Source: a virus | Taxonomy: Duplodnaviria; Caudoviricetes | IMG/VR virus record: IMGVR_UViG_3300020037_002731 | Location: 1 to 64,000 of that record | Reading direction: 5' to 3' (one strand) | Length of the DNA stretch: 64,000 nucleotides | Part shown: positions 38,526 to 60,028 of the stretch, one piece after another | Layout of the letters: each line of letters begins with the position of its first letter | Position numbering within the stretch: the first letter of the stretch is position 1 | Notes under the pieces: model-generated | Told to the model about the DNA's origin: nothing | What the model saw: the letters and a program-made list of their open reading frames with translations, nothing else | Database searches by the model: none | Translations under genes and position numbers: made by a program

Positions 38526-41348
38526 CTATTCTGTAGTTTTTTTACTTACTTCATTAGGTGAAACTGAACTGTAGAATACTCTTCCTACATTATTCTTGTA
38601 CATATATTTTCCTGTCTTAGAATCATAGCTATAATATTTTAAGCCCTCATTAAGTATCTTACCCAACTCTTTATCATATCCAATATTGCTAATATCATTA
38701 ACAGCAGCTCCTAAATATCCTAAAGCATTATCTTGCCTTTTACTAGCATCTTGAGTATTCTCATTCTGATAAGTATGCATGGCAGCTTGTCTAAATCTAT
38801 TGTTACTATCTTGTAATTGAGCTATTGCTCCTTTCTTATTAGTTTCTCTATCTAATTTTTCAGCTTGTTCTCTAAAAGCTATTTCATTATCAGCATTTAA
38901 TTTAGTACCTAAGTTATTAGCTTGTAAAGAATTTCTAACACTAGGAGAATAATTAGTTGCAGTTTTATCTGCTGCTCTTAAACTTCTTGTATTTCTATTA
39001 TACAATTGTGAATAATCAGGAGTAGTTTGAATACTTTGTAATGTAGTTAAAGCTTCATTATTAGGTTTTTCAAGATAGTTTTTATTTTTATTAAATAAAG
39101 ATATTCCAGCAGCTATAGTATTAAAAGCTGGTGAAATATAATCTGCATAATTAATACCCTCACCACCTGGAGTACTTAAATTTGTACTTTTATTAGCACT
39201 TGCAGGAGAATTCATTTTACTGTACTCATTATATCTATCTTCTAAAGGCATTGTAGCTATTCTAGAGTTATTATATTTCATAGGGAATACATCCATACTT
39301 TCTCCCATAGCTCCTGTTAATCCATCATTATTATTAGGTAAAATACCTTGAGCAAAATTATATTGATCACTAGCACTTGAAGCACCTGATTCTAAATTAT
39401 TAGTATTGTAAGGTTGCCAATTACCTCTTCCCAAAATATTATCTTGAAGTTGTTCAAATCCAAAAGGATTGTCTGTTAAATCTCCACCTAAAGGATATTT
39501 ATTCAACATTCCTCCCCATTTCTTTTGAAAAGAACTAAAACTCTTTTGAAATTTACTCTGAAGAGCTATTTCATTTTTTTCAGTTAAATTTTTATACATA
39601 AAATTCTTAGTAACATTAGAAATTTCGTCATTTCTTCCTTTAAATTTATTATCTATCTTTTTACTTAAATCTGCAAAAGTTTTATTAACTTTTTTAGCAT
39701 TAGTCTGTACTTGTCCTTTTTTATCTACTCCTAAAGTATCACTGTAAATATAATCTCCTCTCATAGTTTCATCTCCTTCAACTTCAGCTACAGCACTGTT
39801 AGGGTTATTAACTGGTACTCCTAATTTATTAATTTTAATTCCACCTTGTTCATGTTTAGCTCCATTAAATCTAGTTAAATCTCCACCATTTTTAAAGCTA
39901 TTTCCATAAGGATTAGGATTGTATGTCTGTCTAATTGGAGTACTAGTATCTTGAGGATCTTGCTTTGTAAATTCATTAATAGCTCCTGTAGCTAATCCAC
40001 TTGCTCCACCTAGTATCATAGGTACTCCTACTGCTGCTCCTGCTCCTGTAGCACTTAAAGCTATTCCTCCTGCTAAACTTCCTATACTACCTAAGTTTTC
40101 TCCTAAGAAAGATCCAAAAGTATGTTTAGGTAATCTTTTTTGCTCTTCAGTAATTTTAGGAGCAGACATTTTATGAGGTTTTGCTAATATTCTATCTTGT
40201 AAAGCATGAAAATTGATTGTATCAGGAGCAGGAGATAAACTAGGTTTATAATTCTTAGGATATACTTTTCCACCATCTTTAAATTTATATCCCATACCTA
40301 CTTCAGCTTGTGTAGCTCCAGTACTTCCATTTTTAGAAATATCTCCAGATAAGTATAAATCATTAGCATTTTTATTTCTTCTTCCAAATTTATTTAAATT
40401 TAATTCTCCTTTGATTCCCGCATTAATATGTTCTGTTCCACTTAATCTATTCTCATATGCTTTACCATCTATCCCCCAACCAAGATCTAAATAAGGATTT
40501 ATACTTCCTATTTTGTTTCCTTGATGATTCATAAAATTTCTTTGTACTCCAGTTCTAAAATTAGTATAAGGTGTTAATCTATTATCTGCAAATTTAACTC
40601 CTCCTTCTACTTGTATTGGTACAGTATATTTTTTATTTTCTCCATCTAGTACATCAGAATTATATTTTAATCCTGCTTTTAAGTTAGGAGAATTTTTATT
40701 TATTATTTCAGAATTATTTATCCAAGGATCTTTTTTCTCTTGAGTTCTATCCATGCCACCAGCTAACTCTAAACTTATAAAATCTCTATCACTAGGTAAT
40801 TTTCTATTACCTCCCAGGTTTTTACTATAGTTTAAACTAGTTTTACCTATATTTAAAGAATTTTCAGCTATAGTATTCCAAGGAATTTCCTGATTATAAA
40901 AATTTTCTTTGTTAGTTAAAGATAATTCTGATTTATTTAATTTTCCTCCACCCTTAAAAAAATAAGGTTGTTTAGGTTTAGGTGCTGGTTTTTGTAATTT
41001 ACCATCAAATCCACTATATTCTCCATTAGCATCAGCTATAGGTATTTTATTAAATCCTTTTATTTTATAATTTTCTCCTAAACTTCTAAGATCATTAACT
41101 AATGAATCTATTCTAGGTGCATTGTCTAATATTTGTTGAGAATATCCTTGAGCTTTATCTATAGGTAAAAGTCCATTTTTCATATCTTTTAACATAGCAC
41201 TATCCATACTATTAGTATAGTTATACAAAGCTAGAGAATCTTGATATTTTCTAACTTTATTAGGATCAGTAGTTTGGATTGGTGGTTTTATAATACCTCC
41301 ATCTGGATATTTAAGATATTTAGAAAATTTTGATTTAGATTTTTTCAT
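38526..41348 (-). CDS. Modular virion cargo protein with glycine-zipper TM segment and HEQGG...EVEGDE module
   Basis: GSIGSLAGGIALSATGAGAAVGVPMILGGASGLATGAI; KHEQGGI; AEVEGDE...DYIYSD; five (F/Y)xxGG motifs. Likely start MKKSKS at 41348. Confidence 0.75.
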   Translation of the reverse strand: MKKSKSKFSKYLKYPDGGIIKPPIQTTDPNKVRKYQDSLALYNYTNSMDSAMLKDMKNGLLPIDKAQGYSQQILDNAPRIDSLVNDLRSLGENYKIKGFNKIPIADANGEYSGFDGKLQKPAPKPKQPYFFKGGGKLNKSELSLTNKENFYNQEIPWNTIAENSLNIGKTSLNYSKNLGGNRKLPSDRDFISLELAGGMDRTQEKKDPWINNSEIINKNSPNLKAGLKYNSDVLDGENKKYTVPIQVEGGVKFADNRLTPYTNFRTGVQRNFMNHQGNKIGSINPYLDLGWGIDGKAYENRLSGTEHINAGIKGELNLNKFGRRNKNANDLYLSGDISKNGSTGATQAEVGMGYKFKDGGKVYPKNYKPSLSPAPDTINFHALQDRILAKPHKMSAPKITEEQKRLPKHTFGSFLGENLGSIGSLAGGIALSATGAGAAVGVPMILGGASGLATGAINEFTKQDPQDTSTPIRQTYNPNPYGNSFKNGGDLTRFNGAKHEQGGIKINKLGVPVNNPNSAVAEVEGDETMRGDYIYSDTLGVDKKGQVQTNAKKVNKTFADLSKKIDNKFKGRNDEISNVTKNFMYKNLTEKNEIALQSKFQKSFSSFQKKWGGMLNKYPLGGDLTDNPFGFEQLQDNILGRGNWQPYNTNNLESGASSASDQYNFAQGILPNNNDGLTGAMGESMDVFPMKYNNSRIATMPLEDRYNEYSKMNSPASANKSTNLSTPGGEGINYADYISPAFNTIAAGISLFNKNKNYLEKPNNEALTTLQSIQTTPDYSQLYNRNTRSLRAADKTATNYSPSVRNSLQANNLGTKLNADNEIAFREQAEKLDRETNKKGAIAQLQDSNNRFRQAAMHTYQNENTQDASKRQDNALGYLGAAVNDISNIGYDKELGKILNEGLKYYSYDSKTGKYMYKNNVGRVFYSSVSPNEVSKKTTE

Positions 41349-41390
41349 GGTAAGAAAATAAAGAATATTATATAAACGGGTAAATATAAT

Positions 41391-41414
41391 AAAAAAGGTT
41401 ATCAATAGATAACC
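41391..41414 (-). terminator. Intrinsic terminator after the muzzle gene
   Basis: Minus strand GGTTATC-tatt-GATAACC-TTTTTT. Confidence 0.7.
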
Positions 41415-44400: not shown

Positions 44401-45654
44401 ATCATCACTACTATAACCTACTTGTGAATCCCATGTTGCAGGAACAATAGCTTCTCCATACTGGTCTAATATTTCTGTAAAAGGATCTCCATTACTTCTA
44501 GTATTTAATTCTCTCCCAGGAATATGATAAGTACAAGTCTTTTCTCCTGTATTGTACACAAGTCTAATTCCAATAGGGTAAATTTCATCCTTCATTAAAC
44601 TCATTAAGTTATAATAAGGATGATTTTTATTGTAATAATCTGTAGCAAGTACTCTATAAGTTACCCATTGTACTTGAATATCATTTGCAAATGGTTGATA
44701 ATTAGGCACTTCTTTACCATGAATATTGTACCATTGAGCAATACCTGTAGTATTTTGAACTCCTTTAAATCTCTCATAAATAGTAGGAACTGCTACAATC
44801 TCTTGTACTGTAATATCAGTACTACTATTTTCATTGCCATTATAATTATAAGTACTAGTAGTTACTGGTAAAGTAATAATGAATTGAGCACTTGATACTC
44901 CATTAATGTACTTTATAATTCCTATATTGTAGTACTCAAAACTAGTATCTAGTCCTGTAAAAGTAAATTGAATACTTTTATTAGTACTTGTATTAGCAAT
45001 ATCTCCTGCACCATTTATATTATTTTCTCTACTAATAATATCTATTCTATTACTACTAGTACTCCAGGAAGTTAATCCATTTCCATTAGCATCTGCATAC
45101 TGTATAAATCCAAAATAAGCTCCACTTTTTAAAGCTCCATTAGTTTGTATTTCAATATCAGTACATGGAAATTCAAATTCTCTATCTATTCTAATTGCAG
45201 CACAATCAAAGGGACTTGGTATATTATCTATATCTAAATACCTTCTTGGCTCATTATTATCTGTCCAGTATGCTCTCCTACCACAATCAAAGGTTTCTTT
45301 ATAAATAGCACTAATAGGCTTATCTATTCTAAATCTAAGACATTCATCTTGTACTAAAGTTTCATAAGTACAGTTAGTTAATAAACCTATTTCAGATCCA
45401 GTATTATCACTTTTTACACTGAATATTATAAATTGGTCTAAATTATTTGTAGCAAGTCCTCCTGGATTTAAAATAAATTTATCAGCAGGAATACTAGTAC
45501 ACAAATCATTACCTTCATAGTTAGTATAATAGTAAGATCCTCCTCTTAAAGAGAATTTACCATTTAAACAATATGTAATTTCACCTTCTTTTACTTGAGA
45601 AAGTTCAGCATCTAAATTTAATCCACCAATGCTAGGAGTACTAATAATTTCCAT
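41449..45654 (-). CDS. Tail muzzle/stabilization protein (crAss Tstab-like)
   Basis: 1401 aa. GGLNLD...N...N N-terminus, YWTDN.NEPRRYLD, YWES...YP, IRHHKMP, GGDTFI, WTMSYSP...WVSWYSF.P. Lies between ring/IHF genes and cargo genes. Confidence 0.85.
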   Translation of the reverse strand: MEIISTPSIGGLNLDAELSQVKEGEITYCLNGKFSLRGGSYYYTNYEGNDLCTSIPADKFILNPGGLATNNLDQFIIFSVKSDNTGSEIGLLTNCTYETLVQDECLRFRIDKPISAIYKETFDCGRRAYWTDNNEPRRYLDIDNIPSPFDCAAIRIDREFEFPCTDIEIQTNGALKSGAYFGFIQYADANGNGLTSWSTSSNRIDIISRENNINGAGDIANTSTNKSIQFTFTGLDTSFEYYNIGIIKYINGVSSAQFIITLPVTTSTYNYNGNENSSTDITVQEIVAVPTIYERFKGVQNTTGIAQWYNIHGKEVPNYQPFANDIQVQWVTYRVLATDYYNKNHPYYNLMSLMKDEIYPIGIRLVYNTGEKTCTYHIPGRELNTRSNGDPFTEILDQYGEAIVPATWDSQVGYSSDDLLTGQTNSTPRWKIYNTGEKIDFTSEYDAYILAGGSAGTYEGCYEYGEMSYWESTLTYPNIPDVWNNGVIDLAGQPIRHHKMPDCSIDHIHENLNGSATISEYPYLHILGIQCDNIQIDTTLFPDIVGYEIVIGDRTYQKSIVAKGLLFNNMEQEAPGGAANAVVPAPYIYTNWMYNDLSSFANFAQTDDALLNSFSFYSPDTTFKNTSIGSTSELKLEAEEFGTARYSGYDYSVPVSDVNTGTNTENNINFLGDIVFSTGWYNNYVLPQFTSVRREIDNKEYILNNSYQSTTLGNVNNLYRESTVMLDTTNVFLANTKPDDSKSDYTIPGIVDGDISSYYGALKNNIPNLWGNIENVTYIAPFNMCSVGRDEVNTGCLFGGDTFISFFSFHKRTLYPQYVSNIGIANTDDILNDDGEWGGDGTGGNDPFRLLYGNPVFYCESSINTNYRYSGLTNKETFYPNLDDFALQLFQFESPTNMWADVDNYYLYNSDYSTSRNFNSICTQPDSFEPDECDNHFYTRTIYSEKDQTEGTQDNWLVYLPNNYYDFNKNKGELWDVRNLSGARILYRFNNGIFIKQFNQRLETNNESTVEIGTGSLFDPEPVEIFNVDAGYVGTRSQWAFNSTPYGSFMVDDLRSMVFKFTDNFLPISNIKMSSWFNSNLKLNLLNDYPTFPNYDNPNNPNGIGFISTWDSQNKLWILTKRDFKVFDQENKPSMEEDGRFYFGEGEEKEYVDLSDTEVFINKSWTMSYSPELNVWVSWYSFIPLFYIQRTDTYLSGVDNDIYSHNSEITFNDYYTVEYPYILEIPAKSKSLVSKLNTVFWKTSCYEPTEDLENIYEYKYITFDSGYVYNNNQNTGSLVFVVNDPNIPSQTVTYPTVTGTDTNVLISTNDGIWSLNYLWDKTNNANTAISSTTSSWADTNFVTSYPIDKVINQAAINVNKNWYELKPLKGSWNKARLIFNRNDLILNTVFTIQEQNNSVRN

Positions 45655-46366
45655 ATCTTCTCTTAGGGATTCTAAATCTGTTGTACTTGTAATTTGTATT
45701 TGTAATTATGTTTCCAGCTTCTATTACACTAGGAGTTAAAAAGAATCCTTTAGCTTGACCAAAGTATTGTTTATATCTTTCCTCATGTCCTGCTAATTTA
45801 TTCCAATCATACTCTCCTAGTATTGCTGGTTCTCTAAGCCAATTCCATAGTATGTATTCTTGAATAGCTTGCTTAGTACTTTCTTCATCAGGATACATAG
45901 GTATATTTGTATCAGGATCTACTTTAAAACTTTGAGCTAAGATACTAACACAAGAATCTGTAAAGTTAAAAGTGAGGTAAGGATAATTAACACTAAAAGT
46001 AATACCTACATTTCTAGGAGCTAACCTAGTACAAGAATCACTTACTATATTACTTCTTATTCCATCTACATATCTAATAGGGTATTGAAAATTAAAAGAA
46101 TCTGTAATTAAGGAATTACACCTATTTTTATAAACTCCATCAATGATCTTAATTTCTGTAGGTAATTTTACCTTATTATTCTCTATACTAAGATTATAGA
46201 TTTGAGGTTCAGTACTTCCAGCACCTAGTTGTCTAAGTACATATACAGCCCAATTAATAGCATCACTTTTATTCAAAGTGAATTTATCATTAAGTCTAGG
46301 ATACAATCCTATTATCTCATTAACTAAGAGATCAGTTTTCTTGTATTCAAAAAGCTCATTGTTCAT
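45641..46366 (-). CDS. Tail ring (tubular) protein, crAss Ttub-like
   Basis: 241 aa immediately upstream of the muzzle gene; D..I.W...L..LG, IP.YPD...AI..YI.W pattern. Confidence 0.7.
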   Translation of the reverse strand: MNNELFEYKKTDLLVNEIIGLYPRLNDKFTLNKSDAINWAVYVLRQLGAGSTEPQIYNLSIENNKVKLPTEIKIIDGVYKNRCNSLITDSFNFQYPIRYVDGIRSNIVSDSCTRLAPRNVGITFSVNYPYLTFNFTDSCVSILAQSFKVDPDTNIPMYPDEESTKQAIQEYILWNWLREPAILGEYDWNKLAGHEERYKQYFGQAKGFFLTPSVIEAGNIITNTNYKYNRFRIPKRRYGNY

Positions 46367-58849: not shown

Positions 58850-60028
58850 TTATAATGAAGTTGTTCTAACAAAATCTCTTGAAACCCAATCTATACTAAA
58901 AGCAGTATCAGTAGTCCCAGCAGATTTTTCAATTTTTATTAGTTCACTTGTAATTCTAGCTACAGTAATAGGAATGTTAGTTATTACATTTCCTATATTA
59001 GCATCATTTACAAAATAATCTACTCTTGTTCCAGCAGCATTTACTTCTATCCTTAATTTAGTCCAAGCAGCAGCCCCCACAGCTACAGCACTTGCAGTAC
59101 TAGTTCTATTACCAGCACCACCATTTGCAGTACACATTTGCCAATTAACACTAGTAAGTCTATCATACTTAAAGTATGCTCCATCACTCATATCTCCAGC
59201 ACCACTTACATCTCCAAAACCTAAGTACACTATGTATTCATCAGTTACAGTACTAAGAACTGGAATGTACACATAAGTTTCAAATACATGAACTCCACCA
59301 CCAAAAAATACATTTGAACTTCCTCTCTGAATACTACTTCTAGCAGTAGTTCCTGTACCAGTAATTAAAGATATTACTCCAGCTTGAGAACTAGTTAATC
59401 CAGTACTTACACCCATAGTAATACCAGCTCCAGCACCACCACCAGCATTAGCTGTATTAGTAAATCCAGTATCAGCTATTGCATTATTTTCAAAGTCTTC
59501 TTCCCAATGTAAATGCTTAGTTAAAGTTCTAATCTTAGCAGCAGTTTCTACATACCAAGCTCCAGTTGCACTTGCAATACTAGTACAAGTAAATCTTGTA
59601 GTTTCATCTGGAAGCATTCTTCTTTTAACAGTACCAGCATTATCTTGTACTACTATTATATTAGTACTACTATTAATTATTCTGAAAGTTTTACCTACAG
59701 TATAAGTAGTACAATCTCCTAAATTAATAGTTTGTACTTGAGTACTTCCTGTAAATTCCTGATTAGGAGTACTAAGTATTGTTAATGTTACTGTTGTATT
59801 TGTTGTTGCAGTACTTGTAAATGAACTAGGATTAATAGTTTCACCTAGTACTCCAGCATTATTATAAAGAAGATAAGTATCAGTAGCATCTGTAACTTCA
59901 GTAACATCAATTACTAAATCTACATTTCCAGCTATGATACTAGCAATTTCTTCTTGAAGACAACAAATTTCTTCTTGAATTTGTTTTATTCTTGTAAGAA
60001 AATTATCTTCAGTTACAGTTTTAGACAT
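58850..60028 (-). CDS. Tail fibre/spike protein with lectin (ConA-like) C-terminal domain
   Basis: N-terminal coiled coil (EEICCLQEE), Thr-rich shaft, FE..V..P.LS...Y.V..GF.D...W.KLRIEV...V.YFVND. Confidence 0.65.
   Translation of the reverse strand: MSKTVTEDNFLTRIKQIQEEICCLQEEIASIIAGNVDLVIDVTEVTDATDTYLLYNNAGVLGETINPSSFTSTATTNTTVTLTILSTPNQEFTGSTQVQTINLGDCTTYTVGKTFRIINSSTNIIVVQDNAGTVKRRMLPDETTRFTCTSIASATGAWYVETAAKIRTLTKHLHWEEDFENNAIADTGFTNTANAGGGAGAGITMGVSTGLTSSQAGVISLITGTGTTARSSIQRGSSNVFFGGGVHVFETYVYIPVLSTVTDEYIVYLGFGDVSGAGDMSDGAYFKYDRLTSVNWQMCTANGGAGNRTSTASAVAVGAAAWTKLRIEVNAAGTRVDYFVNDANIGNVITNIPITVARITSELIKIEKSAGTTDTAFSIDWVSRDFVRTTSL

Follow-up and report, generated by a model that had tools for sequence, protein, structure and literature searches.

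An exchangeable beta-strand cassette in the cargo protein C1 of a crAss-like phage and its possible part in ejection

The C1 gene and its modules

No viruses are more abundant in the human gut than the crAss-like phages, and as regards their route across the Bacteroidota envelope, the structure of PhiCrAss001 suggests that the cargo protein C1 leaves the virion first and forms part of a channel. The present analysis deals with a stretch of 64,000 nucleotides (positions 1 to 64,000 of the IMG/VR virus record IMGVR_UViG_3300020037_002731, hereafter called the window), with the C1 gene that it carries at 38526..41348 on the minus strand, and with a 269-residue cassette, containing a core of amphipathic beta strands, that lies within the 940-residue product. 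The stretch is AT-rich (28.4% GC) and is part of an 84-kb record which is itself a fragment, its completeness being estimated by CheckV at 48%.

The gene was assigned from the translation of its open reading frame, from a Pfam match and from a BLASTP comparison. Residues 481-600 (39549..39908, minus strand, as are all the features of C1 given below) match the Pfam family crAss_CARG1 (PF25725) with 32.8 bits against a cut-off of 27, and the BLASTP alignment with gp45 of PhiCrAss001 has an E of 1e-4, the similarity being confined to residues 479-737. In addition, a crAss tail ring protein (PF24228) is encoded at 45641-46366, two genes upstream of C1, and the gene order, namely the ring protein, a virion protein of 1401 residues (the muzzle), the 940-residue C1, a C2 of 583 residues and a giant RNA polymerase (RNAP) protein of 4068 residues, matches that of gp44-gp47 of Bacteroides phage crAss001. 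The CARG1 domain, the synteny and the similarity to gp45 together identify the 940-residue protein as a homologue of the crassvirus cargo protein C1 (PhiCrAss001 gp45). Its reading frame begins with an ATG at 41348 and stays open for 19 further codons, up to a TTG situated 57 nucleotides upstream (41349-41405); the ATG is the likely start, as all the full-length homologues begin at the methionine of MKKSKSKF.

In PhiCrAss001, the N-terminal part of C1 lies in the tail barrel and the CARG1 domain on the portal within the capsid, and gp45 has been proposed to be the first protein ejected, from N to C, helping to form a trans-envelope channel (Bayfield et al. 2023, PMC10172136). By analogy, the C1 protein described here would also be virion-borne and ejected. 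An earlier note on this DNA, made from the sequence alone, had argued that a barrel-like module devoid of a signal peptide would have to be delivered from the virion, and this argument holds: the module is internal to a virion cargo (ejection) protein, no N-terminal Sec signal peptide was found for it, and the protein begins MKKSKSKFSKYLKYPDGG, without a hydrophobic core.

The protein is made up of a succession of modules. A conserved N-terminal domain (residues 1-130; 40959..41348), aligned in all the full-length homologues and bearing the motif KYPDGGII (residues 13-20) at its start, is followed by FKGGGKL (residues 131-137; 40938..40958), which is present as FKxGGKL in all the homologues and constitutes the left border of the insertion. 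The cassette itself, identified from the alignment of homologues, covers residues 138-406 (40131..40937, running from NKSEL to EEQKRL) and consists of a beta-strand module (residues 138-362) and a Pro/Lys-rich linker of about 45 residues (363-406; 40131..40262). The former contains the amphipathic core (residues 191-356; 40281..40778), characterized by its period-2 moment and by its scores on outer-membrane protein (OMP) profiles, whose last strand ends in the beta-signal-like EVGMGYKF (residues 349-356; 40281..40304), as well as a further motif, FKDGGKV (residues 356-362; 40263..40283). While FKGGG occupies residues 131-135, phenylalanine 356 both ends the sequence QAEVGMGYKF and opens FKDGG (residues 356-360). 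Downstream, the cassette adjoins a hydrophobic glycine-zipper segment (residues 407-470; 39939..40130), with GxxxGxxxG at residues 412 and 447, after which comes the portal-binding CARG1 domain, aligned to gp45 from residue 431 of the latter and marked near its start by FKNGGDL (residues 485-491; 39876..39896). YPLGGDL (residues 618-624) and the C-terminal region (residues 625-940) complete the protein (38526..39497).

The motif shared by these borders is a property of C1. The pattern [FYM][KP]xGG occurs five times in it (PYFFKGGGKL, GYKFKDGGKV, YGNSFKNGGDL, KYPDGG and KYPLGG), where 0.15 occurrences would be expected, and is absent from 29 other proteins of the window. In an alignment of C1 homologues (A1), it sits at module borders in every homologue: KYPDGGII precedes the N-terminal domain and FFKxGGKL follows it, FKNGGDL precedes CARG1 and YPLGGDL follows it, FKDGGKV lies in the cassette, and FFKGGGKL stands after the cassette in homologue P0003. 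Moreover, it delimits the N-terminal extensions of P0004 and P0008 and the N-terminally placed glycine zipper of P0013. As judged from these sequences, the C1 family is built of modules separated by a conserved Y-x-F-K-x-G-G-K motif. At least ten aromatic-x-GG sites are present in PhiCrAss001 gp45, and when these are compared with the segments resolved by cryo-electron microscopy, AYGG 207-210 stands before the segment 214-245, AFGG 425-428 opens the segment 425-552, and AYGG 560-563 comes after it, which suggests that throughout Crassvirales this motif is placed where docking or folded segments begin and end.

The cassette as an exchanged insertion

The C1 protein of the window resembles PhiCrAss001 gp45 in the position of its gene, after the muzzle and before the C2 and RNAP proteins, and in having a portal-binding CARG1 domain, a glycine-rich membrane segment and many aromatic-x-GG motifs bracketing structured segments. 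It differs from gp45 in that the latter has no counterpart of residues 138-406, and in that the glycine-rich/transmembrane segment of gp45 is N-terminal (residues 40-160) instead of lying beside CARG1. As for the other relatives, 12 homologues were found, nine of which join ...PYFFKxGGKL directly to PKHTFGSFLGE... without any insert; residues 138-406 are present only in the query, P0003 and P0008, and partly in the truncated P0002. The segment is thus almost certainly an insertion into C1.

The DNA of the insert is 95-100% identical to the L001 and L002 copies, whereas the identity of the adjoining N-terminal domain (residues 21-120) is just 47-78%. The change is located at the borders of the cassette, since on the left the DNA identity climbs from 0.63-0.87 to 0.95 or more at FKGGGKL, and on the right, in L001, the high identity collapses at residues 401-407; P0003 carries a second FFKGGGKL just past the right end of the cassette. 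The near-identity of the insert, next to a flanking domain that has diverged, marks it as a lineage-restricted cassette recently exchanged as a unit between related phages. This horizontally exchanged, lineage-restricted insertion is the main structural fact that the earlier note had missed. Furthermore, the copies of the cassette are 98-99% identical in DNA, differing by 12-15 nucleotides in 807, with 10 synonymous against 1-4 non-synonymous codons, the replacements being either conservative or situated in predicted loops; on this pattern of substitution, the cassette is kept by purifying selection.

Outside this small group the cassette is an orphan. A phmmer search with residues 120-375 against 1.84 billion protein representatives returned its own cluster only, and no relatives of the core were found by a word-indexed search among proteins of 96-307 residues (E up to 10). 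Scans of IMG/VR with the insert and with alignment A1 yielded no relatives, tblastn against GenBank phages gave no match to the insert, and the Pfam, NCBIfam and PHROGs scans gave none for it either. Mosaic and modular ejection proteins, including swaps of soluble functional domains, are already known (PMC8954989), and C1 is itself a known family; the new elements here are an orphan cassette that is exchanged as a unit and a junction motif that borders modules throughout that family.

Other origins of the insertion were considered. The cassette was judged not to be a recently captured host gene, because its GC content (0.279) and its GC at third codon positions (0.09) are the same as those of the phage, and no bacterial relative was found among the 1.84 billion representatives. 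An intein was also rejected, as the two ends of the insert, NKSEL and EEQKRL|P, lack the Cys/Ser/Thr and His-Asn residues of splice junctions. A self-splicing insertion does not fit either, since the insert is in frame and selected at the protein level, and Rfam finds no intron at a related split site (see the last section).

Beta-strand character of the cassette core

The peptides listed in the earlier note as alternating strands are all present on the minus strand in the reading frame 38526..41348, where they form eight alternating stretches of 8-12 residues at positions 191-356 (40281-40778). The alternation itself is real and exceeds chance, the mean period-2 hydrophobic moment of residues 186-356 being 1.08 against 0.76 +/- 0.09 in 1000 shuffles (z 3.35), while the segment has no helical signal at period 3.6 (z -0.1). 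In a second implementation, the moment of the core (1.13) was close to that of 30 genuine 8-stranded OMP_b-brl proteins (1.14 +/- 0.10), taken from the phylum of a Bacteroides genome. Among 30 proteins of the window, the core is the top 170-residue segment for the period-2 moment, and others reach 1.12-1.17. Read from the sequence, the hydrophobic faces comprise 43 residues, only one of them charged, the aromatics lie mostly at strand ends, and the composition is rich in Asn, Lys and Gly (12% Gly). With these properties, the cassette core is probably a beta-rich folded module.

The type of beta structure was approached with profile hidden Markov models (HMMs) built, within the same phylum, from 30 OMP_b-brl, 25 OMP_b-brl_2, 20 Lipocalin_2 (soluble 8-stranded barrel) and 25 GH16 (jelly roll) domains. 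The core scored 3.3 bits (z 4.3) on the OMP_b-brl model and 4.8 bits (z 4.8) on that of OMP_b-brl_2, values reached by none of 100 shuffles in either case; on the soluble models it fell below its own shuffles (z -0.9 for Lipocalin_2 and -0.4 for GH16). The soluble beta controls, twenty in all (ten each of lipocalins and GH16 domains), did not exceed z 1.8 and 0.2 bits on the OMP models, and the insert came first of 803 overlapping segments of the phage proteome on both of them. After the insert, the phage region with the greatest likeness to the OMP profiles (2.9 and 4.0 bits) is in a 392-residue protein at 58850-60028, probably a beta-rich structural protein.

In the ESM-Atlas, the named neighbours of the module were Attacin_C (0.93), Gloverin (0.91), Phage_OMP (0.90) and NfrA_C (0.89), followed by Tsx (0.87), BcsS (0.87) and DUF7840/OMP_b-brl (0.87). 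Insect attacins and gloverins, the nearest of these protein-language-model neighbours, are Gly-rich amphipathic beta-sheet proteins as well, and attacins act from outside on the outer membrane of Gram-negative bacteria and have been modelled as oligomeric barrels (PMC10690985); they are, however, eukaryotic secreted peptides, the likeness is one of features and not of alignment, and no Pfam match of the insert to an Attacin_C or Gloverin profile was found at E up to 10. With the OMP_b-brl and OMP_b-brl_2 barrels (OmpX/OmpA-N type), the module has in common a length of about 170 residues, eight long, dyad-amphipathic, Gly-rich strands, aromatics at the strand ends and a last strand of the form G-x-G-Y-x-F, comparable to the ...VGYKF and ...LGFKF of real members. 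It differs from them in having neither a significant profile match nor a signal peptide, in being placed inside a virion protein, in its long connections and in its fold, which is putative. Taken together, the evidence for a membrane-type beta structure is consistent and specific, but it is weak and does not amount to proof.

Several observations weigh against a membrane barrel. The OMP scores are just 3-5 bits, about 1 bit above those of the 392-residue protein, and the two OMP models share a clan and members, so that the tests are not independent; moreover, the values of 3.3 and 4.8 bits from the custom models fall below the cut-offs of 28.7 and 27 for the OMP_b-brl clan (PF13505 / PF13568). 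No OMP homology was found in Pfam, NCBIfam and PDB sequence searches (E up to 10), Pfam searches of the phage record for Phage_OMP and OMP_b-brl gave no match, and hhalign of the insert against the 30-member OMP alignment gave P 0.057 over 15 columns. By the calibration of the ESM-Atlas, its values of 0.87-0.93, based on at most 165 shared features, count as no more than leads. AlphaFold2, which the earlier note had proposed as a check, was run on residues 131-410 and 186-358 without an alignment, since the core has no homologues from which one could be built, and reached a predicted local distance difference test (pLDDT) score of 34 and 33, modelling neither a barrel nor a soluble sandwich with confidence. 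As to geometry, read from the sequence, the inter-strand connections are long on both sides (7-24 residues), those that would be periplasmic having 10-12 residues against the 2-5 typical of barrels assembled by the beta-barrel assembly machinery (BAM), and one of the hydrophobic faces includes an Arg. Thus, of the outer-membrane barrel put forward in the earlier note, the OMP-like amphipathicity, the faint HMM scores and the Atlas neighbours give weak support, and profile homology gives none.

The textbook BAM signal which had been recognized in EVGMGYKF does fit the consensus (polar-x-G-x-x-aromatic/hydrophobic-x-aromatic), but this consensus has 23 matches in 16,875 residues of phage proteins (1.36 per 1000 residues), its strict form is matched in just 8 of 30 real OMPs, and the match overlaps the junction motif. 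Being at chance frequency, it is not significant on its own. The Tyr-x-Phe of GYKF-KDGG would be explained at least as well by an extended junction motif (compare PYFF-KGGG), instances of which also stand in places not preceded by strands.

A serious rival, if a somewhat unlikely one, is that the module stays out of membranes as a soluble domain rich in beta structure, folded around a hydrophobic core into a sandwich or a small closed barrel; it might then serve as cargo packing or a plug of the tail lumen in the virion, or bind an envelope component in the periplasm. Alternating strands are equally expected of a soluble beta fold and would also suit a sandwich or a lipocalin-type barrel; other phage proteins come near the same period-2 moment, significant OMP homology is absent from the Pfam, NCBIfam, PDB and hhalign comparisons, all the inter-strand connections are fairly long, and ejection proteins do swap soluble functional domains mosaically (PMC8954989). 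On the other hand, the soluble beta controls score nothing on the OMP profiles while the module does, the module for its part gains no score from the lipocalin or GH16 profiles, and strand runs of 8-12 residues together with 12% Gly are more typical of membrane strands. A folded globule would, in addition, be hard to pass through the constrictions of the tail, although the CARG1 domain of gp45 faces the same problem.

Possible roles in ejection and further mosaic modules

We tentatively propose that the ejectosome has in this cassette a membrane-active accessory module of beta type, and put forward with rather more reserve that its core inserts in a membrane. If C1 behaves as in PhiCrAss001, the part upstream of the portal-bound CARG1 domain would be stored extended in the portal channel and the tail lumen and would be the first to leave the virion; here, three elements would make up this leading part: the N-terminal domain, the beta cassette including its Pro/Lys linker, and the zipper segment. 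After ejection, the eight long amphipathic strands could form a small barrel or an embedded sheet at or within the outer membrane of the host and anchor there the leading end of C1, while the linker would reach towards the glycine-zipper hairpin, which would engage the next membrane layer. The allele of the zipper found in the window (39939-40130) gives weak matches to the hydrophobic hairpin of AopB, a translocator of the type III secretion system (PDB 3wxx, E 8.6e-4), and to that of NheB (E 0.005). Since most relatives do without it, the cassette would be an optional booster or a host-adaptation of the ejection channel and not a core part, and no proteolytic cleavage would be needed.

A functional parallel is offered by ejection proteins of the T7 gp14 and P22 gp7 type, which form the outer-membrane pore of podovirus ejectosomes. 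These internal proteins of the virion are likewise the first to be ejected, are believed to open the outer membrane or to anchor in it, and evolve in a mosaic, modular way (PMC8954989), but they use membrane-spanning helices. The word beta-barrel is absent from this review of the podovirus ejectosome (PMC8954989), and no description of a beta-type membrane module in an ejection protein was found in the literature.

A more specific reading, which is rather unlikely, is that the cassette encodes a membrane beta-structure stored unfolded in the tail and the portal channel that folds into the host outer membrane upon ejection. This could result either in twelve small barrels anchoring the ejectosome or, if the hairpins of about 12 copies of C1 were pooled, in one wide barrel through which DNA would pass, akin to those of beta-pore-forming toxins and to the proposed attacin oligomers; the beta-signal-like last strand might engage BamA to help insertion.

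It is improbable that the cassette is a spacer or filler without a specific fold, which only adjusts the length or mass of the stored C1 thread. Such a role would agree with the absence of structure in AlphaFold2, with the Asn/Lys/Gly-rich composition and with the variation of the pre-zipper length, from about 137 to about 730 residues, among close relatives having muzzle proteins of the same size, but it is at odds with the strong synonymous bias between the copies, with the significant period-2 pattern and with the preservation of the unit intact in three otherwise diverged phages.

Cleavage after Phe 356, which the earlier note had supposed would expose the beta-signal, is unsupported by the comparison with PhiCrAss001. 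There, the gp45 counterpart of FKNGG falls inside the continuously modelled residues 425-552 of the virion (PMC10172136), and therefore this homologous junction is not a site of maturation cleavage in that virion. Moreover, no GG-specific peptidase of families C5, C48 or C39 (PF00770, PF02902, PF03412; E up to 1) was found in the 84-kb record, a fragment that is 48% complete. In OmpA the beta-signal is carried internally, so that neither a free C-terminus nor cleavage is required for it to work. That the module is a BAM client cut after F356, with a free ...GYKF acting as its beta-signal and a role as an outer-membrane DNA conduit or exclusion factor, is thus very improbable, for despite the fit of EVGMGYKF to the consensus, its position against a GG motif and the splitting of the C1 gene after the FKNGG junction in L002-L004, by which covalent continuity at junctions appears dispensable, the signal pattern is at chance frequency with its Y and F belonging to the junction motif, the homologous junction is uncut, and an 8-stranded barrel has no lumen for DNA.

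The locus shows whole C1 modules moving between phages, including an orphan beta-strand cassette placed directly before a membrane zipper. If the proposed insertion in the outer membrane is true, the cassette would represent a new type of ejection device, beta instead of helical, and a handle on the host adaptation of these phages; if the more specific reading given above holds, it would be the first beta-barrel ejection module, and the device with which crAss-like phages cross the outer membrane would be a swappable cassette. Were it only a soluble add-on, it would be one more example of the usual mosaicism of ejection proteins. The existence of natural variants that have or lack the cassette opens the question to direct testing.

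Other parts of C1 are also variable. Two unrelated alleles of the glycine zipper, PKHTFGSFLGENLGS... and GKLSYGGSIGTGAASGAAMG..., were observed among close relatives, on comparison of the window with P0003, P0005, P0009 and P0012, the GKLSYGGSIGTGAASGAAMG... allele, as in P0003, matching the Pfam family Gly-zipper_Omp (PF13488); by its sequence, the zipper is likewise swapped as a cassette. The order of the modules varies too, as the glycine-rich membrane segment is N-terminal in P0013 and in PhiCrAss001 gp45 (L166:1988-4516). P0004 and P0008 have two different N-terminal extensions, of about 240-330 residues, each ending FKNGGKL-x-MPDGGII.

In three related contigs, L002 (6001-10577), L003 and L004, C1 is split right after FKNGG by a gene for a GIY-YIG endonuclease of 212 residues, giving reading frames of 829, 212 and 478 residues, and the downstream half has a YNSGGKL motif of its own at its start, together with a CARG1 region that has diverged. 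No group I intron was found by Rfam at the L002 split site, and the two halves are therefore probably made as separate proteins. Finally, the C-terminal third of C1 in the window (38526-39476, residues 625-940) is mosaic when compared with P0003, P0004 and P0010, two alleles being present after YPLGG (residues about 625-730) and two for the last 130 residues or so, which recombine independently among the homologues.

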